64,000 bases of DNA, from NCBI GenBank assembly GCA_045546995.1, contig JAZQDW010000067.1:1864-65863 (forward strand), in the 5' to 3' direction. The notes beneath the pieces are model-generated. The model did not search any database and was not told the DNA's origin. It was given only the letters and a program-made list of their open reading frames with translations. This stretch comes from Eubacteriales bacterium (GTDB taxonomy: Bacteria > Bacillota > Clostridia > Oscillospirales > QAKW01). Below are positions 32,710 to 53,429 of the stretch, piece by piece. Made by a program: the position numbers and the translations under genes. Each line of letters begins with the position of its first letter. Position 1 is the first letter of the stretch.

Positions 32710-32743
32710 GCGCAAGGGGGCTGTAGCCACCCTTGCGCTTTTT
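32710..32743 (+). terminator. intrinsic terminator between the leader ORF and the rhs gene
   Basis: GCGCAAGGG...CCCTTGCGC stem with inner GGCT/AGCC extension, then T5. The rhs ATG lies 35 nt downstream with no promoter recognised in between. Confidence 0.7.
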
Positions 32744-32777
32744 ACATATTCATTATTGCTTAGAAAGGAGCAAAAAA

Positions 32778-35700
32778 ATGAAAACAAAGTTATGGCTACG
32801 CAGTATTTCTTGGCTTGTTTGTTTACTGCTGATCACTCAATGCTGTACTTTTGCGGTTTCTGCCGAAACGGAAACTGTAGCCACTGAAGCAACAGAAGAG
32901 CCTGTGCAGATCGAAGGCGAGTTGATCCAAAAGCGCACGGCGAATGAAAAATACTTTATGCGCAGTGACCAAAGTATTCTGGCGGCGGTTTATCCGAATG
33001 CCGTTCATTATAAGGACGTGGATGGCACCTGGAAAGAGATCGACAACCGCTTAACTGAATCCACCGATGGTGCAGAGACGGTATTTTCCAACACCGTCAA
33101 TGCGCTGAACGTCAAATTTGCCAAAAAAGCAAAAGATGGTAAGTTGGTGAAGCTTCATTATGAAGATACCAAAATTGCTTGGTACTTAAATGGCGCCGCC
33201 AAAACCACCGCCACCCCATTGGAAAACGACTGGCCGGAGCAAACGGATCCTACGGCAGTGATTGGCAATCAATCCGCCGTCTTATATGAAAATATTTTAC
33301 CGAAAGTAGATCTGGAATATCTGCTCATCGGTGATGAACTGAAGGAAAATATTGTCTTAAAAGACCGCACGGCCATAGGTACCTACACCTTTACCTATGA
33401 AACGGGCGCGCTTACAATGACCCTTTCCGACAATATGATCACTCTTTGGCAAGGGGATAAGGCGGTTCTGTTTTTGAACGCGCCTCTGATGACCGATGCC
33501 GCCGGCAACACAAGTGATGCCATTACGCTTTCTTTGCGGCCGGAAAAGGAAAACGAAAATAATCACGTTTATACGGTTTCCGTCACCCCCGATGCCGAAT
33601 GGCTGAACGCCGCCAGGCGTGTATATCCCGTCAAGGTGGATCCTTCCCTGACCACCGAGCAGACCTATGAAAACATAATGGACACCTACGTCAGCAAGTT
33701 GGCTCCCGGGTCTAATTATACAGATGAGATCACGTTCCGTGTTGGCAAGGATGCATCCACCAATGATGTCTATCGGGCGTTTCTAAAGTTTGATCTTCCC
33801 ACGGATATCGGCGAAAGCGATCGTGTGGTAAATGCTACCCTAAATCTGTATCCCGATCCACGATTGACCCATCTGGATACCCTGAATGCCATGGCATCAC
33901 AGCGTCCCGTGTTGCAGGCGCACGCCGTCCAAGAGACGTGGGCTACAAACGAGATCACGTGGGGCAATCAACCCGAGACGGACAGCGATATGCTGGATTA
34001 TGAGATCGTTGAGGCCAAAAACGGCTCAGAAGATGCCACCCGTTGGTACGGATGGAATATTACCTCCTTGGTGGATGATTGGTATACCTCCGGTGTCAAT
34101 AACGGTGTGATGCTGAAACTGGATAATGAATCCGGTTATACCGGCAATACGGTTGCCAAATTCTGTTCTTCGGAATTTAATTTGCTGGAAGATGATAATT
34201 CAATCGTATTCCCCTTGGTCAGTATTACCTATCTTAATATGCTGGGTCTGGAGGACTATTGGACGTATCATTCTTTGGATGCCGGCGTGGGCGGTACTGC
34301 CTACGTCAATGATTTTACCGGTGGCCTGACGATCGTGACTCCTGTGGCATCGGTAGACAGCGCTCACACGCCGCTGAACGTGTCGCTGGTCTATTCTCCC
34401 GGCTCTAACGATGCAAGCATCAATGCGCTGAACGTGGGCAATCATTTTATGCTCAATCTGCAGTGCTACGTAAAGCCGGTCACGATCGGCGACGTTCAAA
34501 AATATAAATACGTCGATGGGGACGGCACCACCCACTATTTTGCACAAAAAAATAATAAATGGACGGATGAAAGCGGCCAGGACCTGACCCTATCAATGGG
34601 CGACGGATATTATACCATACGGGATAAAAAAGATAATCTCCTGCGCTTTTATGCAGATACCGGCCGCCTGTGTAATATTAAAGACAGCGTGGGCAATAAT
34701 ACCCAATTGTATTATACGGTGGTGAACGGAAAATACTATCTCTCCTCCGTCACCAACGGTACCCACACCATCACCTTTACCCGTGACAGTAACAACCGTT
34801 TGTCGCGCGTGTATTATCCCGATGCCGACGGAACCAACGATCAGCGCTTTGCACAGATCACCTATACGGCATCTAAAAATGGCATTTACCATTTGACACA
34901 ATATATTCAGCAGGGCACCACATTGACCCCGACCCACATCGTCAGCTTCCCCTGTGATCATAACGTGGTCAGTCGGATCATCAGTTGTCCGTATGATGCA
35001 GATCGGGCAGATGGTGCCGCATTAAGCGGAACGGCATTGATCTTCGGTTATACCAACGAAGGGAATCTGTCTGAGCACCGTCGACGTATCACCTCTTATA
35101 AGATGGTGCCTTACGTAAACGGCACCCTGCAATCCAATCAACCGGAATACCATTATGCGGTCACTTATCATCGCAATGCTACGCGTTTTACCTCTCAAAT
35201 TGCAGGAGATAGCGGTGTATTTAGTAATGAACTCTACACCTTTGATGCATTGGGCAGAACACGCTCGGCCCAGGATCAGGACGGCTATGCCACCTATCAG
35301 GAGCACGGCATCAGCGGTGGCGCCAAGAATAAGGTCACCTTTACCTCCGATACACGCCGCCACGTTGCAAATCTTCTGAAAAATCACAGCTTTGAAAAGG
35401 GCGATGCCACCACCCTGACCCAATGGGCAAAAATCGGCAACAGCGGCGATAATGCAGCCATTAAAGGGACTGCCGATAACGAGCCGGTCTTTGTCGGCAC
35501 AAAGGCAATGAAGGTATATAAAAATGATGCCGCCCAAACCGTCAATTCCTCGGTGCGGCAGGCCATTACGCTGACAAAGGGCAAAAAATATACCCTCTCC
35601 GCCTATGTCTACACCGATTTGACCACCCTTTCCACTTCCGGCTATACCGGCGCATTTTTGTGCGTAGAAACGGCGGATTATTCACCCCAGAGCTATTGTC

Positions 35701-38700
35701 ACAATATTATCAGTGACGGCGCTTGGTCACGCCATTTTGTCACCATCGACCTGACCGGGAACGTGGATATGGCAACCAGTGAAACGTTTTACGTTTATCT
35801 TGGTATTGAGCGAGCAAAGGGTGCGGTATATTTTGACGGTGTCCAACTGGAAGAGGGCGGCTCGGTCAATTCCTATAACCTGATCGAAAACGCCGGCTTT
35901 GAGGACAGCACGGACACCGCCTGGATCGGTACCGAGCTGCAAAGCGGCGATGGCCGCACCACCGATTCCTCCCGTGTGGGATACTTCTATAAAATGGTCG
36001 GCAACAGTAAAACGTCCAAAAAGCTGGCCCGGACCGTCACCGTCAGCGGTAAACAGGGCGATGGCATAACGGCAGGTGCCTTTATTCGCAACTTCGGCCT
36101 GCCCAATAAGGATACCTATCATAACGGCACCAAACAGGATTGTGCCATCACGTTGGAAATTTGCCATTCCGACGGTTCCTCCCAATTTGTCACCCAAAGT
36201 GCGGAAAATGAGGTCGATCATTGGCAATACGTTTGCCTGGGAGCTGTTGCCGAGGAGAATTATACACAGCTTAAACTGTATCTAAAGTTCATTTATAACG
36301 GCAATACCGCATATTTTGATGACGTCGGTCTGTATCGGGACACCTTCGGGCAAAGCCTGACCTACGATGAAAAGGGCAACGTTACCACCGTGGTAGATAT
36401 GGCCAATAATACCAAAAACATCATCACCGACGGTAATAACGATATGACCTCCTATACGGACGGCGAGGGCAACGAGTATACCTTCGAGTATGACGGTGGA
36501 AACAGTGCGACGAAAAAGCATCTGCTGACCAAGGTGACCGATCCTTTGGACGATCAAACGGCATATACGTATGATGCAAAGGGCAACGTTACCAAGACCA
36601 CCTTAACGGATGCGGCGGGTAATATGACGATGTCCGCCTCCACCGCCTATACGGCAGATGGACATTACGTTGCAAGTCAGACGGATGCGGCAGGTATGTC
36701 CATTCGTTATAATCGTTCAACCGTGGACGGACGGGTAAATGACGTTCGTGCACCGTTGCCCGACGGTTATGATCTTAAAACTAGTTATACCTACGATCCG
36801 CTTACCAAGGAGACGGTGGGCGTTGAAGTGGCAACCGATATTCCCTACGGTGGCGAACACCGTTCTTTGCCCGCCAACGTAACCTATGCTTATGACCGTG
36901 GCAATTTGACGGATATCGTCCGTAAGGCTGACACAACCAAGCAGATGGGCTATCATATGACCTACGATAACGTTGGCAAACGCACCGGCGTGTATTGGTC
37001 GGGCAAAACCAACACCCAATCGCTGTTGCAATCCGCCACTTATAAAGATTTTGGTGCAGTGGATACCGTTACCTACGGCAATGGCCAAACCTTGTCTTAT
37101 ACCTACAACAACGCAGGCTTGGTCACTGAAAAGGCATATAATAATACGCCGGTGGTAAAATACGACTACAATGCAAACTATGCCCTCGGTGCCGCCGCCT
37201 ATTATCGCCCGGTCAGCAACACCTGGGAGCGTACCAACTACTTTTATGACCTGGCAGGCCGGATCTCCGAAACTAAGGATACCCGCGGTCTCAGCACCGG
37301 CGCCTATTCGTATGATAAAAACAATCGTCTGCTCTCCTATCGGTCGGTCTTGGAGGATGCCCACGTAGATCTTGGGTATACTACGCGCTATACCTATTTG
37401 GCCGATAACACGCTCAAATCCATCTGTCTGGATCCCGATGGCGGATATGAAAGCGGTACGATGCGGTACGGCTATGATGGGATCGGGCGACTGTATATCA
37501 AGAGATTATCGCTGGATAGTATGGACAATTCTTTCAGAATAGACTATACTTATAAGCAGAATGAGGACGGTTCCCGTACCACCCGACCTTCCACTACCTC
37601 TTACAAGGGTATATACAATGGTACCACCGTGGAGGGTTCGTACTACAGCACCTATTATGACGACGGCAAAATTGCCTCTCATCGGGTCATCGATAACAAC
37701 GGTACAAAAACCACGGCATTTGAATATGATGCATTGGGGCAACTTACTTCCACCGATGACGGCACCGACGAATACACCTATTCCTACGATGCCGGTGGCA
37801 ACCTCACCGCAAAAACCTTCACCACTTCGGCAGATGACAGCGATTATACTGCCACCTATACCTACGACAGCAACTTTTCCGACCTGTTGACCGGATATGC
37901 CAAAACCGAGGACGGTGTCACCACCACCCGCACCTATAATTATACTGCGAGCAATGGTACCAAATTTGTCAATCCCGTTTCCATTACCGAAACCAACGGC
38001 ACCACCAGCAGTGTGATGCAGCTTGGTTGGCGGCAGGGCCGGACGTTGGAAAGCATTACCACCGATGCCGGTACCGTTCGCTATGAGTACAATGAAAACG
38101 GTCAGCGTATTTTGCGACAACTGGTCAACGGCGCCAAACGGGAATACTATTACAACGGCACGCAGTTGGAGTATATCAAGATCCTTACGGCGGCGGGTAA
38201 CCTGACAAGCACGATGCGTTATATTTATAATGCAAACGGTCAGGCGGAATATATTCTGTACATTACCAAAGGCAATGCAAAAACTCCCGCGGCCTACAAC
38301 CTGTACTACATTCTGCGAGATAACACGGGCGTGATCCAAAAGCTCATCAAGGTGCGCGCGGCAAGTTCTACCTCTGTCACCCCCACCTTGTCCGTGGCAG
38401 TGGAATATAAGTACGACCCCTACGGTAAGCTTCTGTCTATCACCAAGGCCAGCGGCGAGAGCGTTGGCACCTACAACCCCCTCGTTTATAAGGACTATAT
38501 CTGGGACAGCGAGACTGATTGGTACTACTGCAACAGCCGTTATTACGATCCCGAAACGGGCAGATGGATCAATGCGGATGCATATTTAACTACGGAACAA
38601 AGTATTACCGATACCAATATGTTTTTGTATTGCGGAAATAATCCTGTTCTTTTTGAAGATGCTAGTGGAAATAGGTACGCTGTTTCCGCTTCGCAAATAG

Positions 38701-39188
38701 AAGACGAAACATGGGAGGAGAGAGGCTATTCATGTGATCATATGAATAAGCAAAGTGGTCGTGGGCTCAATCCATCCCACAGAGAAGAACTTCCGACAGG
38801 AGAACGACTCATATATTATACAGTTGGAAACAGCAAGGTTGTTACACCGAAATCTTTAGGAAAAAATACAATTATTATCAAGGATGTGAGAAATAATAGC
38901 CTTGACCCAGGAAATGCAAATATGCAAATTGTAGATTCGTACAAATACACTCGTCGTCAAAATGAATTAAGGATTAATATTCTTAATAGTATGCTACATT
39001 ATTGCCAAAGAGTTCCAAATTCCGGTAATGGATGGATTAGAAGTGTTCCATCGATGCTGTGGGAGTGGGATTTGCACAATTTGGCACACGACTTGTATCT
39101 TAAGCGATCAAGTAGCGGAAGCGTTGATCTTGATAATAAATCAGAAGATTGGGGGATCATTCAACATATATGGTACGCAATTTCTTGA
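32778..39188 (+). CDS. Rhs/YD-repeat polymorphic toxin, Sec-signal, WapA-like (2136 aa)
   Basis: Signal peptide MKTKLWLRSISWLVCLLLITQCCTFAVSA. DNRLRE-like and two CBM-like regions. Many YD repeats (YxYDxxGN/R). Core end ...RYYDPETGRWINAD...LYCGNNPVLFEDASG, followed by a 170-aa unassigned AT-rich tip. Confidence 0.9.
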   Translation: MKTKLWLRSISWLVCLLLITQCCTFAVSAETETVATEATEEPVQIEGELIQKRTANEKYFMRSDQSILAAVYPNAVHYKDVDGTWKEIDNRLTESTDGAETVFSNTVNALNVKFAKKAKDGKLVKLHYEDTKIAWYLNGAAKTTATPLENDWPEQTDPTAVIGNQSAVLYENILPKVDLEYLLIGDELKENIVLKDRTAIGTYTFTYETGALTMTLSDNMITLWQGDKAVLFLNAPLMTDAAGNTSDAITLSLRPEKENENNHVYTVSVTPDAEWLNAARRVYPVKVDPSLTTEQTYENIMDTYVSKLAPGSNYTDEITFRVGKDASTNDVYRAFLKFDLPTDIGESDRVVNATLNLYPDPRLTHLDTLNAMASQRPVLQAHAVQETWATNEITWGNQPETDSDMLDYEIVEAKNGSEDATRWYGWNITSLVDDWYTSGVNNGVMLKLDNESGYTGNTVAKFCSSEFNLLEDDNSIVFPLVSITYLNMLGLEDYWTYHSLDAGVGGTAYVNDFTGGLTIVTPVASVDSAHTPLNVSLVYSPGSNDASINALNVGNHFMLNLQCYVKPVTIGDVQKYKYVDGDGTTHYFAQKNNKWTDESGQDLTLSMGDGYYTIRDKKDNLLRFYADTGRLCNIKDSVGNNTQLYYTVVNGKYYLSSVTNGTHTITFTRDSNNRLSRVYYPDADGTNDQRFAQITYTASKNGIYHLTQYIQQGTTLTPTHIVSFPCDHNVVSRIISCPYDADRADGAALSGTALIFGYTNEGNLSEHRRRITSYKMVPYVNGTLQSNQPEYHYAVTYHRNATRFTSQIAGDSGVFSNELYTFDALGRTRSAQDQDGYATYQEHGISGGAKNKVTFTSDTRRHVANLLKNHSFEKGDATTLTQWAKIGNSGDNAAIKGTADNEPVFVGTKAMKVYKNDAAQTVNSSVRQAITLTKGKKYTLSAYVYTDLTTLSTSGYTGAFLCVETADYSPQSYCHNIISDGAWSRHFVTIDLTGNVDMATSETFYVYLGIERAKGAVYFDGVQLEEGGSVNSYNLIENAGFEDSTDTAWIGTELQSGDGRTTDSSRVGYFYKMVGNSKTSKKLARTVTVSGKQGDGITAGAFIRNFGLPNKDTYHNGTKQDCAITLEICHSDGSSQFVTQSAENEVDHWQYVCLGAVAEENYTQLKLYLKFIYNGNTAYFDDVGLYRDTFGQSLTYDEKGNVTTVVDMANNTKNIITDGNNDMTSYTDGEGNEYTFEYDGGNSATKKHLLTKVTDPLDDQTAYTYDAKGNVTKTTLTDAAGNMTMSASTAYTADGHYVASQTDAAGMSIRYNRSTVDGRVNDVRAPLPDGYDLKTSYTYDPLTKETVGVEVATDIPYGGEHRSLPANVTYAYDRGNLTDIVRKADTTKQMGYHMTYDNVGKRTGVYWSGKTNTQSLLQSATYKDFGAVDTVTYGNGQTLSYTYNNAGLVTEKAYNNTPVVKYDYNANYALGAAAYYRPVSNTWERTNYFYDLAGRISETKDTRGLSTGAYSYDKNNRLLSYRSVLEDAHVDLGYTTRYTYLADNTLKSICLDPDGGYESGTMRYGYDGIGRLYIKRLSLDSMDNSFRIDYTYKQNEDGSRTTRPSTTSYKGIYNGTTVEGSYYSTYYDDGKIASHRVIDNNGTKTTAFEYDALGQLTSTDDGTDEYTYSYDAGGNLTAKTFTTSADDSDYTATYTYDSNFSDLLTGYAKTEDGVTTTRTYNYTASNGTKFVNPVSITETNGTTSSVMQLGWRQGRTLESITTDAGTVRYEYNENGQRILRQLVNGAKREYYYNGTQLEYIKILTAAGNLTSTMRYIYNANGQAEYILYITKGNAKTPAAYNLYYILRDNTGVIQKLIKVRAASSTSVTPTLSVAVEYKYDPYGKLLSITKASGESVGTYNPLVYKDYIWDSETDWYYCNSRYYDPETGRWINADAYLTTEQSITDTNMFLYCGNNPVLFEDASGNRYAVSASQIEDETWEERGYSCDHMNKQSGRGLNPSHREELPTGERLIYYTVGNSKVVTPKSLGKNTIIIKDVRNNSLDPGNANMQIVDSYKYTRRQNELRINILNSMLHYCQRVPNSGNGWIRSVPSMLWEWDLHNLAHDLYLKRSSSGSVDLDNKSEDWGIIQHIWYAIS

Positions 39189-39994
39189 AAACCGCGTTTT
39201 CGGCGGTCAACATTATTTTGTATATAGTACTGATGCTTCCATTGATAGCATTTCCGATCCTTTTGTTCTTTCCCTATATATTTGAAGCAAACCTGTACTT
39301 TTCAACCATCTATTACTATCTGCTATCAGGACAGATCGAACTCTTTTTGCTTTTGGTTATTTTACTGCTGTTCTTTTTTATAAAAATCATTCGTCGGGAA
39401 AAAGTTTATTATTTATTCTCATCGCTGTTGCTGATAGCAAATTGCATTTTTGACGTTTTGACTTGGAACAAACCATTGCACGCGGTTGGAATTATCGTCA
39501 AACTGTTGATTGCGATCTCATTTTTTGTTGAAGGATGGAGGGCGCGCGGAGATTATTTCTCAAAGCACAGGAAAAACTTGCGTTTTTCTGTTTGTTGGGG
39601 TAGTGTGTTGTTTTTTGCCGGCTTTTTGCAATATATGTTGCTGAAATTTGAGCAAGGTCCCATTCTCATTTTTGCGGTCGCCATCTTATTTGTTGTCGGA
39701 CAAGCAATTTGGTTCATCTGTCAGCACATGTCCGCAAGGGATGTTGGTTACATTTGGCTTGGCTCGACATTTGTATGGGGGCTCCTTTCTTCTTGGTTAT
39801 CGTTGCTGCTGTATAAGCCGTTTCCATATTGGTTTGATGTTTCCGAAGATTATATGAATGAAAAATTTTGGCCGTTTTTTGTTTTCCAAATCCTTCATTT
39901 GGTAACAATGGGCATTGTGTGGTGCATCAAGGCAAGAGGCGGTTCTAAGAAAACAGAAAGAAATAACACAGGGGACGATTCTCTTGTCTCCTGA
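39170..39994 (+). CDS. polytopic membrane protein, putative cognate immunity protein
   Basis: Overlaps the rhs stop by 19 nt. AT-rich like the toxin tip. About 8 hydrophobic segments. Start choice uncertain (TTG 39149, ATG 39170 or ATG 39233). Confidence 0.55.
   Translation: MVRNFLKTAFSAVNIILYIVLMLPLIAFPILLFFPYIFEANLYFSTIYYYLLSGQIELFLLLVILLLFFFIKIIRREKVYYLFSSLLLIANCIFDVLTWNKPLHAVGIIVKLLIAISFFVEGWRARGDYFSKHRKNLRFSVCWGSVLFFAGFLQYMLLKFEQGPILIFAVAILFVVGQAIWFICQHMSARDVGYIWLGSTFVWGLLSSWLSLLLYKPFPYWFDVSEDYMNEKFWPFFVFQILHLVTMGIVWCIKARGGSKKTERNNTGDDSLVS
39967..39991 (+). repeat. REP-like element (degenerate core GGGGACGATTCT, mixed arms)
   Basis: cacaGGGGACGATTCTcttgtctcc. Supplies the last codons and the stop of the immunity gene. 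Confidence 0.7.
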
Positions 39995-40052
39995 CCTGTT
40001 GACCGGCTATGCTAAAACCGAGGGCGGTGTCACCCCCACCTTGTCCGTGGCA
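39993..40052 (+). pseudogene. orphan rhs fragment A
   Basis: Matches rhs 37881..37922 joined to 38382..38399 at a shared GTCACC, equivalent to an in-frame 459-bp deletion. Ends at a REP-like element. Confidence 0.8.
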
Positions 40053-40063
40053 AATTGCAAGGG

Positions 40064-40088
40064 AACACAGGGGACGGTTCTGTGTGTT
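40064..40088 (+). repeat. REP-like element, stem version 2 (ACACAG/CTGTGT)
   Basis: aacacagGGGACGGTTCTgtgtgtt. Confidence 0.8.
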
Positions 40089-40089
40089 G

Positions 40090-40249
40090 ACGGGCGTGAT
40101 CCAAAAGCTCATCAAGGTGCGGGCGGCAAGCTCTACCTCGGTCACCCCCACCTTGTCCGTGGCGGTGGAATATAAGTACGACCCCTACGGTAAGCTTCTG
40201 TCTATCACCAAGGCCAGCGGCGAGAGTGTGGGCACCTACAACCCCCTCG
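40090..40249 (+). pseudogene. orphan rhs fragment B
   Basis: 160 bp matching rhs 38325..38484 with 6 mismatches by hand alignment. Homology stops exactly at the next REP-like element. Confidence 0.85.
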
Positions 40250-40281
40250 GGGGGGACAAGGGGACGGTTCTCTTGTCCCCC
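40249..40281 (+). repeat. REP-like element, stem version 1 (GGGGGACAAG/CTTGTCCCCC)
   Basis: gggggggacaagGGGACGGTTCTcttgtccccc. Confidence 0.85.
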
Positions 40282-40330
40282 GGCTCCTTAACAAACGGAA
40301 ATACAACAAATAGCTTTGGTGTAAAATTGC

Positions 40331-40368
40331 AACACAGGGGACCAACACAGGGGACGGTTCTATGTGTT
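40331..40368 (+). repeat. REP-like element, version 2, with a partial 5' duplication
   Basis: aacacaggggacc then aacacagGGGACGGTTCTatgtgtt. The 3' flank runs into the -35 of the RAYT-like gene. Confidence 0.8.
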
Positions 40369-40395
40369 GACGATTTTAGTTTGCTATGTTACAAT
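40367..40395 (+). promoter_or_regulatory. candidate promoter of the RAYT-like gene 1
   Basis: TTGACG, 17-nt spacer, TACAAT, with TGt extended -10. The -35 overlaps the end of the REP-like element. Confidence 0.55.
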
Positions 40396-40412
40396 CAAAT
40401 TGGTGATGCGAT

Positions 40413-41159
40413 ATGCCAAGACAGGCGAGACAGAAAAGCGAAAGCAGAATCTACCATGTAATGCTTCGCGGAATCAATCAACAACAAATTTTTGAGGATT
40501 CAGAAGATTATGATAAGTTCCTCAATATTATGAAAGACTGTAAGGCAATATGCGAATTTAAGCTATTTGCATATTGCCTTATGAGAAATCATATTCATTT
40601 ACTTATTAAAGAGTGCAAAGAGCCGTTGGAACAAATATTTAAACGAATCTGCGGACGATTTGTATACTGGTATAATATCAAGTACCGACGTACAGGCCAC
40701 TTGTTTCAGGATCGTTTTAAAAGCGAGCCGGTGGATTCGGAGAAGTATTTCTTCACCGTACTGCGCTATATCCACCAAAACCCTACCAAGGCAGGTATTT
40801 GTAAGTGTGTTGAGGACTATGCCTACAGCAGTTATTCGGAATATACTGGTATAAGCAGACTTGTTGACACAGAATATGTTTGGGCACTGACTACGCTTGA
40901 AGATTTTGTTGGCCTTAATCATGAAACAGTTGACACGCCCTGTTTGGATGTTTCCGAGAAAGTCATTGCGCGCGTAACGGACGAACAAGCAAGAGCAATC
41001 ATCAAAAAGATCGCGCGGTGTGACAACGTTTCGGATTTCCAAAACTTAGATCTTGTGACCAGGGATAAATGTTTGAAAAAGTTTAGAGACAAAGGAATTT
41101 CAATCAGACAGCTAAGCAGATTAACGGGCATCAGTTTTAGTATTGTGAGAAAATTCTAA
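40413..41159 (+). CDS. RAYT-type (IS200-like Y1/HUH) transposase-like protein with C-terminal HTH
   Basis: HUH motif NHIHLLI. Tyr motif LRYIHQNP. GHLFQDRFKS. C-terminal GISIRQLSRLTGIS helix-turn-helix. Confidence 0.8.
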   Translation: MPRQARQKSESRIYHVMLRGINQQQIFEDSEDYDKFLNIMKDCKAICEFKLFAYCLMRNHIHLLIKECKEPLEQIFKRICGRFVYWYNIKYRRTGHLFQDRFKSEPVDSEKYFFTVLRYIHQNPTKAGICKCVEDYAYSSYSEYTGISRLVDTEYVWALTTLEDFVGLNHETVDTPCLDVSEKVIARVTDEQARAIIKKIARCDNVSDFQNLDLVTRDKCLKKFRDKGISIRQLSRLTGISFSIVRKF

Positions 41160-41160
41160 T

Positions 41161-41216
41161 CACACACAGAACCGTCCCCTGTGTTCTATCACACACAGAA
41201 CCGTCCCCTGTGTTCT
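41161..41216 (-). repeat. two tandem REP-like elements (version 2) inverted relative to the upstream copies
   Basis: cacacacAGAACCGTCCCCtgtgttct repeated with a 29-bp period, starting 2 nt after the RAYT stop. Confidence 0.85.
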
Positions 41217-41399
41217 AATATTAACTGTTCTGTTAATCCAAGGTATCATCTGTATAATTCGGTTTTTCAAAAAGTAAATAATAGGTAGGATACAGAGGAT
41301 GGCTTCCAGATTGGCAACTCGTAATCTCAACAACAAAAATAGGGACGATTCTCCATTAAAAAGGAACTTTTATGTGACAATCAAGGAACGGACAATCAA

Positions 41400-41461
41400 G
41401 GGACAGTTCTTTGCCTCGGAAAAACTTAAACAGGGGGACAAGGGGACGGTTTTCTTGTCTC
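41400..41461 (+). repeat. direct-repeat copy 1 (gggacagttctttgcctcggaaaaacttaaacaggg) fused to a version-1 REP-like element
   Basis: 36-nt block repeated at 42577..42612 with 1 mismatch. REP gggggacaagGGGACGGTTTTcttgtctc at 41433..41461. Confidence 0.75.
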
Positions 41462-41480
41462 GAACAAAGGAGATGTTGCT

Positions 41481-42566
41481 ATGATAAAAAAACGAATGGT
41501 CTGCATATGTGCTATTATGTTGCTGTTGTTTTCTTCTTGTGGAAGCACAAATATAGTAGATCGTTTTGCCGAAACGGAACTGACAAAAGAAATCGCACAA
41601 ACCATTGTGCATTCTTTTAATTCTGCTCAGATTGATCAACCTTTTTCAACATCAGATGTTGTTCCCTATGAAATGGCATTTAAGTATTTTCGTTATTTTG
41701 GATTTTATAATGAAAAGGGTGAAATGCGCCCACAAGTGGTTTCATATCAAGATGGCTTGAAATACAAGGTGCCACGCAAAGTGGTGGATACGTATTTGAG
41801 TTCAAAGTTTAATACGACTCCAAGCGCCAAAAGCATTTCATGCTATGATGCACAGAGCGACTCTTATGTGATCGCACCCGTAGACAGTTATGCCGGAAAA
41901 ATAACGATTGATTCCATTGATAAGCTGGATAACAACCAATATCAAATCCACGCAACTGTGCAAGATGAACCGACAGAAACTCTTTTTTCTTTTGAGCAAA
42001 CGTTTACAATTGAGTATAACGGGTCATTTAAGTTTTTATCCTTTGAAGAAAAAGAGAAGGCATTTCAAGAGTTGACGGCAGAGGAACAAAAACTTTTATC
42101 GTATATTAATGATTATTATTTCTTTGATACACGTCAGTATTATGATGAAGATCACAAGATTCCTTATGACGTTGCTTTTAAGTGTTTTGCCATCTACGGT
42201 TTTTGGGATAACAATGGGGCTCTGCGCAAGGAATTAAAGCAGTATGCCACCGGAAATGAATACGAAGATCCATATAATATTCCTGCGAAAATAGTAGATG
42301 ACTTTGTCGCTTCAAGGTTTGACGTAGAGATAGATCGATCCAATATTGAAAATTACAATAAAGAAAGCGACTCATATCTCATTCTACCGAACGCTGCAGA
42401 TGGGCACGATTTTGCAGAATTGATAAGTTATGAACGTTCCGGAAACATCTATAGGATTATTGTAAATCAGCGGAATTGGTTAGATCCGAATTTGGTTGAA
42501 AAGCAAATGTTTCGTCTTGAAATAAATGACGAGAACTGCAAATATCTTGCTTTTACCAAGATTTGA
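41481..42566 (+). CDS. lipoprotein with internal two-fold duplication, function unknown (possible orphan immunity protein)
   Basis: Lipobox LLLFSSCGS. Two ~170-aa repeats (PYEMAFKYFRYFGFYNEKGEMR... and PYDVAFKCFAIYGFWDNNGALR...). AT-rich. Confidence 0.65.
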   Translation: MIKKRMVCICAIMLLLFSSCGSTNIVDRFAETELTKEIAQTIVHSFNSAQIDQPFSTSDVVPYEMAFKYFRYFGFYNEKGEMRPQVVSYQDGLKYKVPRKVVDTYLSSKFNTTPSAKSISCYDAQSDSYVIAPVDSYAGKITIDSIDKLDNNQYQIHATVQDEPTETLFSFEQTFTIEYNGSFKFLSFEEKEKAFQELTAEEQKLLSYINDYYFFDTRQYYDEDHKIPYDVAFKCFAIYGFWDNNGALRKELKQYATGNEYEDPYNIPAKIVDDFVASRFDVEIDRSNIENYNKESDSYLILPNAADGHDFAELISYERSGNIYRIIVNQRNWLDPNLVEKQMFRLEINDENCKYLAFTKI

Positions 42567-42572
42567 AAGAGA

Positions 42573-42639
42573 CAATGGGACAGTTCTTTGCCTCGGGAAA
42601 ACTTAAACAGGGCGGGAGATTTTCTCCCGCCCTGTTTTT
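42573..42639 (+). repeat. direct-repeat copy 2 plus terminator hairpin; left copy of the nested inverted repeat (partner 50712..50782)
   Basis: gggacagttctttgcctcgggaaaacttaaaCAGGGCGGGAGAttttTCTCCCGCCCTGttttt. The hairpin works as a bidirectional terminator for the lipoprotein and nitroreductase genes. Confidence 0.8.
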
Positions 42640-47097: not shown

Positions 47098-47173
47098 TGG
47101 TGGGAGTAACAGGACTCGAACCTGTGACCCCTTGCACGTCAAGCAAGTGCTCTACCAGCTGAGCTATACTTCC
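47098..47173 (-). tRNA. tRNA-Val (anticodon GAC), with encoded CCA
   Basis: Cloverleaf read by eye. Anticodon loop TTGACGT. GTTCGAGTC T-loop. One A3:C70 mismatch in the acceptor stem. Confidence 0.8.
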
Positions 47174-47188
47174 ATTTTGTACTATGTT

Positions 47189-47216
47189 ATTATATCACAC
47201 TTTTTTGAAAATGCAA
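47189..47216 (-). promoter_or_regulatory. candidate separate promoter for tRNA-Val(GAC)
   Basis: On the minus strand: TTGCAT, 16-nt spacer, TATAAT, with TGa extended -10. Confidence 0.45.
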
Positions 47217-47295
47217 TACCTTTTTTAAAAAAGTGATCGAAAGTCGCTGTATCGCCTGCGGCGAGACAGCTCTGCGCGAACTGCAGACTGCGACC

Positions 47296-47333
47296 AAAAG
47301 AAAAAGCATCCCGATAGGGATGCTTTTTCTTTT
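47296..47333 (-). terminator. long hairpin terminator after the three-tRNA unit
   Basis: AAAAGAAAAAGCATCCC gata GGGATGCTTTTTCTTTT, a 17-bp stem. Confidence 0.6.
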
Positions 47334-47408
47334 GGTGGAAGTTACAGGGCTCGAACCTGTGACCCTCTGCTTGTAAGGCAGATGCTCTCCCAGCTGAGCT
47401 AAACTTCC
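47333..47408 (-). tRNA. tRNA-Val (anticodon TAC), with encoded CCA
   Basis: Perfect acceptor stem GGAAGTT/AACTTCC. Anticodon loop CTTACAA. Confidence 0.85.
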
Positions 47409-47416
47409 GTGGGATA

Positions 47417-47491
47417 TGGTGACCCGGACGGGAATCGAACCCGTGTTACCGCCGTGAAAGGGCGGTGTCTTAACCGCTTGACCACCGGGCC
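47417..47491 (-). tRNA. tRNA-Glu (anticodon TTC), with encoded CCA
   Basis: GGCCCGGTGGTCAAGCGGTTAAGAC...CTTTCAC anticodon loop...GGTTCGATTCC. Confidence 0.85.
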
Positions 47492-47495
47492 AAAA

Positions 47496-47572
47496 TGGTA
47501 GCGGCAGCGGGATTCGAACCTGCGACCAATCGGGTATGAACCGAGTACTCTAGCCAACTGAGCTATGCCGCC
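47496..47572 (-). tRNA. tRNA-Met (anticodon CAT, elongator-like), with encoded CCA
   Basis: GGCGGCATAGCTCAGTTGGCTAGAG...TTCATAC anticodon loop. Lacks the initiator features. Confidence 0.8.
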
Positions 47573-50711: not shown

Positions 50712-50782
50712 CAAAAACAGGGCGGGAGAAAATCTCCCGCCCCGTTTAAGTTTTTCTAAGTCAGAGAACCGTCCCCTGATTG
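50712..50782 (-). repeat. right copy of the nested inverted repeat (hairpin plus aaaacttaaac block plus REP-like core)
   Basis: Its reverse complement caatcaGGGGACGGTTCTctgacttagaaaaacttaaacggggcgggagattttctcccgccctgttttt aligns to 42573..42639. The 42-nt inner block has 2 mismatches. Confidence 0.8.
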
Positions 50783-51306
50783 CCCTTGATCAACTGTTGA
50801 ATTATAGTTTCCTCTTGTGATCCCATAGATAACTGCGTAATATCTTTTATACTAATATAACTCTTGCCGTCTTCGTTTCCATCAACATCAAATTGTTTTA
50901 TAACACAGATATCATGTAGTACAGAATCGACTTTACCAATAACATCCCATTCGCCACTGCTAAGCAATTCCAAAGATACAAGTTGTTTTTTATTTTGAGC
51001 AAAATTCAACAACGACATTAAAGCATTTTCTTGAAATTCTATATCAATCTCAGGCAAAGCTTTTGTTTGCATCAATTTCTGCATTCGTTGATTGTAACAA
51101 CTATCAAGTTCTATACGAAAAACATCTCCAACACTTTTGAGCATAATGCCATCATAATTTCCGTCCGGTAGCAGAAGATACATAACAAACCACTCTGCAT
51201 CTACATACAGCACTTTGCCAAATAAAAATTTGGAGGTGTTATACCCGTTTGTGTATACCGAAGCAAAAATGTTTTTATCACGAATCTCTTTTAAAGTAAT
51301 CAACAT
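50761..51306 (-). CDS. hypothetical cytoplasmic protein (181 aa), possible orphan immunity protein
   Basis: AAGGAGA SD 7 nt upstream. AT-rich. The last 7 codons and the stop lie in a REP-like element. Confidence 0.6.
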   Translation of the reverse strand: MLITLKEIRDKNIFASVYTNGYNTSKFLFGKVLYVDAEWFVMYLLLPDGNYDGIMLKSVGDVFRIELDSCYNQRMQKLMQTKALPEIDIEFQENALMSLLNFAQNKKQLVSLELLSSGEWDVIGKVDSVLHDICVIKQFDVDGNEDGKSYISIKDITQLSMGSQEETIIQQLIKGNQGTVL

Positions 51307-51340
51307 ATCTTATTCTCCTTATGTAGTAATAATTTTCTGC

Positions 51341-51400
51341 GCAAGGGACAAGGGAGGGACAAGAGGACAGAGGGACAAGGGGACGGTTCTCTTGTCCCCC
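51341..51400 (+). repeat. REP-like element (version 1) with an iterated GGGACAAG 5' arm
   Basis: gcaagggacaagggagggacaagaggacagagggacaagGGGACGGTTCTcttgtccccc. Confidence 0.8.
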
Positions 51401-51513
51401 TGGCCAAAATTACTTTACACGGTTAAGTTTATACAATATCCTTTTCCCCAAGTTCCTATCAAAAGTTTGGTATCATGATCATAAAACTCGGCAAAACAGC
51501 CGTGATCTATCTC

Positions 51514-51545
51514 GGGGAGACAAGGGGACGGTTCTCTTGTCTCCT
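51514..51545 (+). repeat. REP-like element (version 1)
   Basis: ggggagacaagGGGACGGTTCTcttgtctcc followed by T7. Lies 5 nt from the RAYT-like gene 2 stop. Confidence 0.85.
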
Positions 51546-51549
51546 TTTT

Positions 51550-52293
51550 TTAAATGTTTGATTCTACAATTTTCTTAGAAATACCAGTTAATCGAGCAAT
51601 TTGCCTTATCGATAAACCTTTGTTATGCAATTTGCTAATATAGAAATTACGTTTTTCTTTATCAAGTTTTTGAAAATCTGCTGCTGTCTTACATTTTGTG
51701 CTTTTCAATATAATCGTTTTTGCTTCAGCATCTGTCAAGCGATAATGTTCATCCATTTCTAAACAATTATCCGCATTTTCTTCTCTGTGATACTCAATAA
51801 ATTGATCCTTCGTAATCATCGAAAGAGCAAAACTTGTATCAACAAAAACCGGAGTTCCTAAATATTCTTTTATGCTACTGTTGGCGTATTCCTCTGCCTT
51901 TATGCATATCCCTGCCTTCACAGGATTCTGATGAATATACCGCAACACCGTGAGAAAATAGCTATCATCCTCAACAGGTTCACTCTTGAATCGATCCTGA
52001 AACAAATGTCCACAGCGGTGATATTTCCAGTTATACCAATAAACATAACTCCCGGCAATTCGTTTAAATATGGCGCTTAATTCTTCTGCGCCTTCTCGCA
52101 ACAGAATATGTATATGATTCCCCATCAAGCAATACGCATATACTGTATATCCGCATAATTCCTTATATAGGGCAAGTGTTTCAACAAATCTTTGACAATC
52201 TTCTCCATCCTCAAATATCTGTTGACGATTGATTCCTCTCAATATTATGTGGTATATTCCACTATCGCTCTTTTTTCGTGCTTGACGTGGCAT
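51550..52293 (-). CDS. RAYT-type (IS200-like Y1/HUH) transposase-like protein with C-terminal HTH, diverged paralog
   Basis: NHIHILL, LRYIHQNP, GHLFQDRFKS, GLSIRQIARLTGIS. N-terminal domain about 64% identical to the 40413..41159 product by hand alignment, C-terminal part lower. Confidence 0.8.
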   Translation of the reverse strand: MPRQARKKSDSGIYHIILRGINRQQIFEDGEDCQRFVETLALYKELCGYTVYAYCLMGNHIHILLREGAEELSAIFKRIAGSYVYWYNWKYHRCGHLFQDRFKSEPVEDDSYFLTVLRYIHQNPVKAGICIKAEEYANSSIKEYLGTPVFVDTSFALSMITKDQFIEYHREENADNCLEMDEHYRLTDAEAKTIILKSTKCKTAADFQKLDKEKRNFYISKLHNKGLSIRQIARLTGISKKIVESNI

Positions 52294-52310
52294 AACTATC
52301 ACCCAATTTG

Positions 52311-52339
52311 ATAATACATCATCATCTATTTTTTGTCAA
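52311..52339 (-). promoter_or_regulatory. candidate promoter of the RAYT-like gene 2
   Basis: On the minus strand: TTGACA, 17-nt spacer, TATTAT. The -35 directly follows a REP hairpin plus T5. Confidence 0.55.
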
Positions 52340-52345
52340 GAAAAA

Positions 52346-52435
52346 GGGGACAAGAGAACCGTCCCCTTGTCTCCCAGAGAACCGTCCCCTTGTCTCCCGA
52401 GAAAAAGGGGACAAGAGAACCGTCCCCTTGTCTCC
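52346..52435 (-). repeat. three REP-like elements (version 1) in inverted orientation
   Basis: Complement cores AGAACCGTCCCC at 52355, 52378 and 52416. On the minus strand two of them read as hairpin plus T5. Confidence 0.85.
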
Positions 52436-52662
52436 TAAATATAATAGTCCCCTTGCGTTGTTTTGACAATCAATCGGGAATCTGTTGTGAATTTAGCAAC
52501 GCTCGGTTGCACCATATCGGAGAAACGCGAAACGTGCTCTCCCGTTTTTTTGTCATATAAATTCGCGCTGCCGCCGCAACAACAAAAATATTTCTCATTA
52601 TGCGCGATGTGATATGATTTCTTGAAAGTAAATAGAATCTCTTTTTTATCAATCACTTTCAT
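52435..52662 (-). CDS. 75-aa ORF, probably a truncated gene remnant
   Basis: AAGGAGG upstream (a GTG at 52656 is better spaced). The ORF ends exactly at the REP cluster boundary. No motif recognised. Confidence 0.35.
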   Translation of the reverse strand: MKVIDKKEILFTFKKSYHIAHNEKYFCCCGGSANLYDKKTGEHVSRFSDMVQPSVAKFTTDSRLIVKTTQGDYYI

Positions 52663-52711
52663 TCCCTCCTTACCATAATCCGCCCATTTGTATATCCCAT
52701 TTTACAAATCA

Positions 52712-52723
52712 TGGGACGGTTCC
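52712..52723 (+). repeat. degenerate REP-like core
   Basis: tGGGACGGTTCC followed by ctgattg (compare 50777..50783). Confidence 0.5.
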
Positions 52724-52737
52724 CTGATTGACTCCTG

Positions 52738-53079
52738 CTATGTCTTTTCGTTTTGACTTGACCATCCGCATTGATCACAACAAATCACATTGTTTCGCAT
52801 GGTGACAGTACCAAATAAAATGCGCGTCGTTCCCAAAGTAACACGTTCCTTTTGTGGGTCAGCCAAATGTTTGTGCCATACTTTATGCGTTTTGGCACCG
52901 CAATTCGGACAAACTTTAAATCGACGTTCAAAAAGTATATGTTGAACAAAGATCGTAATTGCAATCATCACAAATAAAACTCCAGCCGCAATGATGGATG
53001 CTTTAAGTCCGAAAACTTGTTTAATAATGCCCAAAATCACGAACATAAATAATGGAAATAGTAGTTTGTTGTTCTTCAT
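52738..53079 (-). CDS. small membrane protein with C-terminal zinc ribbon (113 aa)
   Basis: Two hydrophobic helices then CPNCG...CDQCG. AT-rich. Confidence 0.55.
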   Translation of the reverse strand: MKNNKLLFPLFMFVILGIIKQVFGLKASIIAAGVLFVMIAITIFVQHILFERRFKVCPNCGAKTHKVWHKHLADPQKERVTLGTTRILFGTVTMRNNVICCDQCGWSSQNEKT

Positions 53080-53088
53080 TGGAAACTA

Positions 53089-53388
53089 TCACTCCTCAGA
53101 TTCTATGTTCTTCTTTTGCCAGCGTATAAGTGCATAACTCATAGAAAGAAAGCAGAAATATGTTGTAATCATGAATACGATGGGCATCTCCGGAAATCGG
53201 TGATTTAAAATTGCATGTACGATTATTGCGGGAATCATATGTAAAAAAGTATAACCAATAGATCCCCACCATAGTTTAAAACTTTTATGGGGATAATATA
53301 TATAATTGTACAGCCAAACAAAAAGACTAAAAATATGAATAATTGGTATCCACATAATTTTCTTTTGCGTACTAATCGAAATTTTCAT
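53089..53388 (-). CDS. small polytopic membrane protein (99 aa)
   Basis: ATG 53388 after GAGGAGAAAAG. The track N-extension is a translated REP element. Confidence 0.55.
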   Translation of the reverse strand: MKISISTQKKIMWIPIIHIFSLFVWLYNYIYYPHKSFKLWWGSIGYTFLHMIPAIIVHAILNHRFPEMPIVFMITTYFCFLSMSYALIRWQKKNIESEE

Positions 53389-53402
53389 TTCTTTTCTCCT
53401 CA

Positions 53403-53429
53403 GAGACAAGGGGACGGTTCTCTTGTCCC
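53403..53429 (+). repeat. REP-like element (version 1) between the right leader and the first gene
   Basis: gagacaagGGGACGGTTCTcttgtccc. Confidence 0.85.

Follow-up and report, generated by a model that had tools for sequence, protein, structure and literature searches.

Two RAYT-like genes of a clostridial contig with predicted promoters joined to REP hairpins and a C-terminal helix that covaries with the REP stem

In E. coli, the gene of TnpA_REP, a tyrosine transposase associated with repetitive extragenic palindromic (REP) elements (RAYT), forms a REPtron, in which a single Y1/HUH open reading frame (ORF) lies between inverted REP hairpins and each paralogue has one REP family (Nunvar 2010; Ton-Hoang 2012; Messing 2012, PDB 4ER8). 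Subclass 2.1 of the TnpA_Y1 proteins was described as a RAYT-like core with a C-terminal helix-turn-helix (HTH) extension that is HTH_23-, HTH_28- or DnaA_C-like, and was equated with the TIRYT proteins and their TIRtrons (Di Nocera et al. 2013, PMC3733652) by Quentin et al. 2018 (PMC6006769). In these two studies REP-like hairpins were not found beside subclass 2.1 genes, and the role of the HTH in DNA target recognition was left undecided. Here we analyze two RAYT-like genes, gene 1 and gene 2, in a stretch of 64,000 nucleotides (referred to below as the window) from a Eubacteriales bacterium (assembly GCA_045546995.1, contig JAZQDW010000067.1, positions 1,864 to 65,863 of the forward strand). 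Each gene has a predicted promoter that is joined to a REP hairpin, and two residues in the last helix of the protein change together with the stem of that hairpin, which the HTH most likely reads. The genes themselves belong to a known class, and an HTH extension on RAYT-like Y1 proteins is already known (PMC6006769); the joining of promoter and REP and the recognition code are new, and full-text literature searches found no description of a REP-embedded RAYT promoter or of a covariation between helix and stem.

Gene 1 (40413-41159, + strand) encodes a protein of 248 amino acids with the HUH motif at H60/H62 and the tyrosine in Y119-IHQNP, and gene 2 (51550-52293, - strand) encodes a paralogue of 247 amino acids that starts with MPRQAR. 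Both proteins contain the Pfam domain Y1_Tnp (PF01797) at residues 12-123 (E ~1e-13; 52 and 52.9 bits against a cut-off of 23) and terminate in G(I/L)SIRQ(L/I)(S/A)RLTGIS, and H60, H62, Y119 and Q122-N123-P124 are invariant in an alignment of 31 sequences. The nearest relative of known structure is E. coli TnpA_REP in complex with a REP hairpin (4ER8; sequence E 1.7e-4). The predicted fold matches the same structure (Foldseek E 6e-9, template modelling (TM) score 0.81), which is the best match of the N-terminal domain. The family holds 7152 proteins at E values of at most 1e-10, nearly all of them ~248 amino acids long; its JGI label is 'REP element-mobilizing transposase RayT' and its named relatives are Oscillospiraceae/Ruminococcaceae. 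The likeness to the E. coli system lies in the single Y1/HUH ORF between inverted REP hairpins and in the pairing of each paralogue with one REP family. The differences are that the proteins score 75.8 and 67.9 bits with the NCBIfam RAYT equivalog NF047646, below its cut-off of 80 bits, that the window REPs lack the GTAG tag of the classical REP superfamilies and have CGTC only inside the loop on the opposite strand, that an invariant loop (GGGGACGGTTCT) is combined with variable stems, and that an extra HTH domain of 60 amino acids and a promoter embedded in the upstream REP are present. An autonomous insertion sequence (IS) of the IS200/IS605 type does not fit, as the flanking REPs are inverted rather than direct and the two copies are just 53% identical in protein sequence; no TnpB-sized ORF (~400 amino acids) adjoins either gene in the ORF list, in which the neighbouring ORFs were not searched for TnpB. 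With subclass 2.1/TIRYT the genes share the C-terminal HTH extension and a serine motif after the catalytic tyrosine (Y136, S139, S140) that is consistent with membership. Their flanking inverted repeats resemble those described for the subclass, which have a GGGG-rich motif, GGGGWSAS, at a constant spacing to the ORF; the REP motif GGGGACGG matches 7/8 of it and likewise keeps a constant spacing. In contrast to that subclass as described, clear multi-copy REP hairpins are found here, with the -35 box inside the repeat and a recognition helix that covaries with the stem.

The hairpin upstream of gene 1 (40343-40369, + strand; folding energy as DNA -5.5 kcal/mol) is a cognate REP whose stem covaries across loci. 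It consists of the 5' arm CAACACA (40343-40349), a loop of 13 nt, GGGGACGGTTCTA (40350-40362), and the 3' arm TGTGTTG (40363-40369). The promoter-like site (40367-40395, + strand) has the -35 box TTGACG (40367-40372), a 17-nt spacer, TG at 40387-40388 and the -10 box TACAAT (40390-40395), and with a score of 10/12 it is the sole site of at least 10/12 within 39800-41600. The initial annotation had derived this -35 box from the flank of the REP; the two are indeed joined, but the TTG is not flanking sequence, as it forms the last three pairs of the 7-bp stem CAACACA/TGTGTTG, at the end of the 3' arm. The Shine-Dalgarno sequence GGTGAT (40402-40407, + strand) lies only 6 nt downstream of the -10 box and 5 nt upstream of the ATG. 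From the end of the -10 box to the ATG there are 17 nt, and the predicted leader is ~10-12 nt long.

Upstream of gene 2, the cognate REP hairpin (52344-52373, - strand) has a GACAAG stem of 9-10 bp that is rich in G+C and the loop GGGACGGTTCT. It is followed by T5 (52345-52341), one C and the -35 box TTGACA (52339-52334), which begins 9 nt past the stem and beyond the T-run; after 17 nt follow the -10 box TATTAT (52316-52311) and the Shine-Dalgarno sequence GGTGAT (52303-52298, - strand). This promoter-like site (52311-52339, - strand) scores 11/12 and is the top site in 51300-52700. Both promoters, TTGACG-17-TACAAT and TTGACA-17-TATTAT, had been proposed at these positions before, and the promoter scan recovered them as the best sites of their regions. 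The further proposal that a terminator-like REP insulates each gene from upstream transcription agrees with gene 2 only. Its upstream REP combines the G+C-rich stem and the T-run of an intrinsic terminator, whereas that of gene 1 has a weak, A/T-rich stem of 7 bp, a 13-nt loop and no T-run, and was not flagged in the terminator scan. The layout of gene 2, with a longer stem and a T-run before the -35 box, is a minority layout that recurs in L030, L041, L071, L139 and L154 of the related loci described below. On the other side of gene 1, two inverted cognate REPs with the CACA stem (41161-41213, - strand; hairpins at 41164-41184 and 41193-41213) follow the gene, the nearest beginning 2 nt past the stop codon. 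An inverted cognate REP with the stem GAGACAAG (51514-51546, + strand) lies 3 nt past the stop codon of gene 2, and with the T-run that follows it on the + strand it is predicted to be terminator-like for converging transcription.

The arrangement was compared among 155 related loci. The genome set consists of 80 loci, taken from Oscillospiraceae, Acutalibacteraceae, Peptococcaceae, Sporomusa, Lucifera, Heliorestis and Syntrophomonas at 46-75% protein identity, and its measures were taken on n=81 with the two window genes included; a second set of 80 independent metagenome loci was measured on n=74. A promoter match of at least 10/12 was found in 61/81 loci of the genome set and 40/74 of the metagenome set, compared with 4% of 400 control windows taken within those loci, and the -10 box is TG-extended in 54/81 and 47/74. 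In 59/81 genome loci the REP core precedes the -35 box by 12-17 nt, and in 56/74 metagenome loci by 11-17 nt; over both sets, a near-consensus promoter, mostly TG-extended, follows the core at 11-17 nt in about three quarters of the 155 loci. The predicted promoter is physically joined to the REP, as the initial annotation had it for the window, and this is conserved across the Bacillota relatives beyond chance. The loop or core GGGGACGGTTCT is nearly invariant in the alignment of the loci, and the stems vary with compensation (CAATCA/TGATTG, AAGACA/TGTCTT, AACACA/TGTGTT, TGTCAA/TTGACA). In the gap-free alignment subset A5, 87.8% of the cells are paired, and one pair occurs as G-C in 12 sequences and as C-G in 8; the observed value was reached by 0/500 shuffles. 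The outer pairs of the stem are confined to AA/TT(G), and because of this they can double as the start of TTGACA; the 3' arm contains 1-6 bases of the -35 box in 36/60 loci. At the other end of the unit, most loci have an inverted REP ~0-28 nt past the stop codon.

Between the end of the -10 box and the ATG there are 16-20 nt in 65/81 genome loci and 16-21 nt in 57/74 metagenome loci. With this spacing, transcription is expected to begin at the Shine-Dalgarno sequence or immediately ahead of it, and a conserved, unusually short leader of ~10 nt should result. A stretch caaattgg(g)tgat ('caaattggtgat') had been noted between the -10 box and the ATG of both genes. It is present in both, but only GGTGAT is conserved in the relatives, where the ATG is 5-6 nt away, and this conservation and spacing identify it as the Shine-Dalgarno sequence, a ribosome-binding site and not an operator-like element. 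The part caaatt was considered as a shared operator and rejected, since it is not conserved in relatives.

The link between protein and DNA comes from the last residues of the protein. For each locus, the stem class was taken from the upstream REP beside the promoter, which is ~750 bp away from the helix codons, and the mutual information with this class was calculated for each column of the protein alignment. The normalised value is 0.96 for position 246 and 0.92 for position 242, while the next-best columns reach 0.59 (position 248) and 0.43, and the means of ten-residue windows in the Y1 domain are 0.03-0.18. In the genome set, CACA stems go with F at 242 and R at 246 (R in 16/16), GACA stems with K at 242 and E at 246 (E in 22/24) and ATCA stems with Y at 242 and Q at 246 (Q and Y in 11/11). 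The rule holds in the independent metagenome set, where CACA stems have R in 20/21 and GACA stems have E in 14/15 and K in 15/15, and new stem classes appear there, (A/G)GCA with W at 246 (3/3) and pyrimidine-CA stems with R/L. The two window genes show the same pairing within one contig: gene 1 has F/R and CACA stems, gene 2 has K/E and GACAAG stems, and one loop is common to both. One helical turn separates positions 242 and 246, which places them on the same face of the helix. Arginine with C:G, glutamate with G:C and glutamine with A:T are standard readout pairs of recognition helices.

The match of helix and stem is not a marker of clades. In a tree built from residues 1-238 the stem classes are interleaved, with 19 Fitch changes where 3 would mean monophyly, and outside the helix the proteins are as similar between classes (53.4% identity) as within one (53.9%). 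The nearest neighbour is of a different class in 29/95 cases. In the pairs L006/L016, L008/L011 and L011/L014, proteins that are 84-89% identical have different helices with different stems, and most of what differs between them lies in the last 8-35 residues. The class of the upstream REP agrees with that of the downstream REP in 74/103 loci, and where the main classes disagree the helix goes with the upstream REP in L044 and L069, and with the downstream REP in L113. Judged from this covariation, which is independent of phylogeny, the HTH most likely reads the REP stem, and the binding of the HTH to REP DNA, as proposed in the initial annotation, is very probable.

Prediction of the whole protein in AlphaFold2 (predicted local distance difference test, pLDDT, 87) shows a flexible linker at residues ~175-188 followed by five helices. 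The last two helices of the C-terminal 60 amino acids (231-238 and 242-246) form the predicted HTH, and the recognition helix ends the protein. In gene 1 this domain covers residues ~190-248 (40980-41156, + strand) and the recognition helix residues 242-248 (41136-41156, + strand), with F242 and R246 as the specificity residues; in gene 2 the recognition helix is SKKIVESNI (51579-51553, - strand), in which K and E occupy the specificity positions. A C-terminal HTH had been read from the sequence in the initial annotation, and the confidently predicted five helices bear this out. Matches below threshold to HTH_3, HTH_58, HTH_7 and HTH_23 occur in 12-14/18 C-termini, with a best E value of 2e-5. 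A search of 1.8 billion representatives with the C-terminal domain gave 402 clusters, nearly all of them fragments or proteins of ~250 amino acids with the domain at the C-terminal end, and the domain is essentially confined to the RAYT-like family of ~248 amino acids.

From the anatomy of the loci, its conservation, the predicted fold and the covariation we infer a mechanism in which the protein binds its own REP and represses its own gene. Each gene is a compact 'REPtron' of a Clostridia-type genome, made of a cognate REP hairpin, a predicted sigma-A promoter, a predicted leader of ~10 nt, the Y1/HUH ORF and an inverted cognate REP at the stop codon. The loop or core is common to the REPs and the stem is specific to a family (CACA, GACA, ATCA and others), and residues 242/246 would set the stem that is recognised, with F/R for CACA, K/E for GACA, Y/Q for ATCA and W246 for (A/G)GCA. 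In this way the paralogues of one genome could each keep to one REP family in spite of the common loop. The HTH would bind the stem as a duplex. This could be in an extruded hairpin or in double-stranded DNA, in which the arms make up an inverted repeat with a separation of 13 bp, an arrangement that would suit a dimer. As the cognate stem overlaps or abuts the -35 box, binding should repress the gene; in the majority layout, which includes gene 1, the protein on its cognate REP would exclude RNA polymerase and autorepress the near-consensus promoter. In the minority layout of gene 2, the REP with its T-run would additionally serve as an upstream terminator. We give this model as a whole, with the REPtron, the stem-reading HTH and the autorepression taken together, a probability of about 60%.

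Promoters within the terminal repeats are a well-known autoregulatory design for transposases of other IS families; they reportedly lie in the terminal inverted repeat and are autoregulated, for example by InsA at IRL of IS1. The likeness to the IS1 InsA type is that a -35 box inside an element end would be bound by the element's own protein, with one binding event for end recognition and repression. The IS1 InsA type, however, has a DDE enzyme and duplex inverted repeats, and here the REP end is hairpin-forming, the Y1 enzyme acts on single strands and a separate HTH would be used for the readout of the duplex. The left-end hairpin of IS200 is said to be a terminator against read-through. The layout of gene 2, with a G+C-rich hairpin and a T-run 5' of the promoter, would give a similar insulation, whereas gene 1 and the majority type have no T-run.

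Several points weigh against the model of REP binding and autorepression. It rests on sequence and prediction, the start site, the binding and the expression all being predicted, and the stem classes were assigned by a simple regular expression, with a few exceptions such as L087. No Pfam HTH family scored above its curated cut-off in the two proteins or in 18 C-termini, and a Foldseek search of the PDB gave no significant match for the C-terminal domain, the best being DnaA domain IV and Spo0J with TM ~0.5; the sigma-r4 or DnaA-C assignment suggested in the initial annotation is accordingly not established. The recognition-helix codons are less than 30 bp away from the downstream REP, and a co-transfer of the 3' end with this REP could add to the correlation. 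Finally, the stem of gene 2 ends 9 nt before the -35 box, and simple occlusion is less obvious there.

The main rival to autorepression is that the HTH only targets the Y1 nuclease to REPs for cleavage or mobilisation, and that the promoter adjoins the REP merely through compactness, as in the left ends of IS200/IS608. The covariation speaks for recognition and not for repression, the stem does not overlap the -35 box in gene 2 and ~6 other loci, and the unit is extremely compact at both ends, all of which would suit this explanation. Against it, the distance from the core to the -35 box is constant within a few bases over proteins that are only 46-75% identical, and the outer stem pairs are held at AA/TT(G), where they double as -35. 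A near-consensus, TG-extended promoter that drives a nuclease would also normally need repression, and we consider recognition without regulation rather unlikely. Another explanation regards TTGACA as a REP tail, or as a cleavage or target motif of the Y1 enzyme, with the true promoter elsewhere. IS200/IS605 transposases do cut at short motifs beside their hairpins, and TTGAC directly follows the stem in 45/206 REP copies away from RAYT starts; but it is missing from most other REP copies, the downstream cognate ones included, and only the ORF-proximal copy has a TG-extended -10 box at 17 +/- 1 nt and a fixed Shine-Dalgarno sequence and ATG, which makes this explanation highly improbable.

The correlation of helix and stem could also be the product of hitch-hiking, by recombination of the 3' end together with the adjacent REPs or by conversion between paralogous genes, with no base readout by residues 242/246. 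The short distance to the downstream REP would favour this, and the divergent block between L011 and L014, the last ~35 residues, resembles a module swap. However, the class was scored on the upstream REP, on the far side of a conserved ORF, and where upstream and downstream copies disagree the helix does not systematically follow the downstream one. Moreover, the signal is in two columns (i, i+4) instead of a whole swapped block, and the pairings of residue and base are chemically sensible. Hitch-hiking can contribute, yet it fails to explain the match with the upstream REP, and as the full explanation it is very unlikely. Least probable of all is a DnaA-type domain with a conserved host target, an idea that was suggested in the literature and that agrees with the weak best structural likeness of the C-terminal domain, to the DNA-binding domains of DnaA (3pvp and 1j1v, TM ~0.5). 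These matches are not significant (E above 3), Bac_DnaA_C is not among the Pfam matches of the whole proteins or among the 25 families shown for the 18 C-termini, and a helix that varies with the local REP stem is not explained by a conserved host target.

The REP core AGGGGACGGTTCT occurs in the window in 17 copies with at most 2 mismatches, where 1.04 are expected in 64 kb. All 17 copies are in two clusters, 39970-42587 and 50765-53421, within ~1.5 kb of the two genes. Two main stem families occur, ACACA/TGTGT, which flanks gene 1, and GACAAG/CTTGTC, which flanks gene 2 and is also found near gene 1. Upstream of the promoter REP of gene 2 there are more REPs of the GACAAG type, one full and one truncated (52378-52432, - strand). 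Remnants of ATCA-type REPs with CAATCA/AAATCA arms were seen at 41393-41410, 50765-50782 (- strand) and 52705-52735 (+ strand), where the copy at 52711 is followed by TGATTGACT; a RAYT of the Y/Q type is absent from the window despite these remnants, and a third paralogue may be located elsewhere in the genome or have been lost. A chimeric REP at 39958-39996 joins a 5' arm of the CACA type (AACAC) to a 3' arm of the GACAAG type (CTTGTCTCC), and the core between them (AGGGGACGATTCT) has one mismatch; this REP cannot form a hairpin and overlaps the end of a membrane-protein ORF of 281 amino acids (39149-39994). A 36-nt repeat, GGGACAGTTCTTTGCCTCGG(G)AAAAACTTAAACAGGG, combines a degenerate REP core with a conserved tail and is present at 41400-41435, 42577-42612 and 50740-50777 (- strand). 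Two of its copies flank an ORF of 361 amino acids (41481-42566) with no Pfam match and a lipoprotein-like N-terminus, and the third is inverted near 50765. The Rfam scan found no family over the REPs, and only four tRNAs at 47.1-47.6 kb pass the thresholds; this cluster of four genes (47101-47572, - strand) lies between the two RAYT loci.

The window contains, upstream of gene 1, a gene for an RHS-repeat protein of 2151 amino acids (32733-39188, + strand; RHS_repeat E 9e-22, with N-terminal CBM96 and CBM_4_9). The end of its core (..VEYKYDPYGKLLSITKASGESVGTYNPL) at 38325-38484 is duplicated at 40090-40249 over 160 nt with 96% identity. The duplicate is bracketed by two further REPs 5' of gene 1 (40063-40281, + strand), one of the CACA type (40063-40090) and one of the GACAAG type (40251-40281), and is bounded exactly by them, the junction on the CACA side reading ..GTGTGTTG joined to ACGGGC. 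From its sequence the duplicate looks like an orphan RHS tip that was cut by REPs.

Several features were seen around the REPs of the other loci. In the window and the genome loci, 57 REP modules have a complete promoter; of these, 46 stand before a full-length RAYT ORF, 2 before a truncated RAYT, and 9 are orphan fragments with no convincing gene downstream; a mobile-promoter reading, with REP-promoters driving other genes, was considered and no evidence for it was found. REP arrays in some cases duplicate the REP with part or all of the RAYT promoter (L005, L006 at -1591, L016 at +2440, L031 at -146, L032, L038 at -184, L074 and L079), and in L038 the first ~18 codons were duplicated too, so that the copied unit can extend beyond the hairpin into the promoter. 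In several genomes (L002, L009 and L010, where REP copies are followed by (T/A)GCGTGAA(A/C)C) the core GGGGACGGTT runs into another conserved tail (..GCGTGAAACC..) in place of the 3' arm, and these copies may represent an element of another kind with the core in common. In L044 and L067 the ORF enters the downstream REP, and the last codons and the stop codon are encoded by the REP arm.

A wider reading is that the REP/RAYT pairs of Clostridia are orthogonal, re-programmable recognition modules with a two-residue code, which could be retargeted by recombination of the last ~8-35 codons, and in which the RAYT would be an autoregulated nuclease and a transcription factor for a REP-marked regulon. 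The latter role would follow from the many REP copies that carry a -35 hexamer. We regard this reading as a whole as improbable. An earlier speculation, that REPINs and RAYTs are a promoter and transcription-factor system, is attributed to Bertels and Rainey (2011) in a passage of PMC8049555; if true, the reading of a REP-marked regulon would be a concrete version of the speculation given in that passage.

RAYTs and REPs are widespread, and the questions of how a RAYT chooses its own REP, how its expression is controlled and what the HTH of subclass 2.1 does, the last left unresolved in PMC6006769, are all touched by these genes. Abundant 'transposase' annotations of gut Clostridia are here found to be REP-associated, with hairpin repeats that earlier surveys of this subclass had not found. 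The conserved layout with the REP in the promoter gives a concrete model of autoregulation, and the covariation predicts that a change of two residues would change the stem that the protein prefers.

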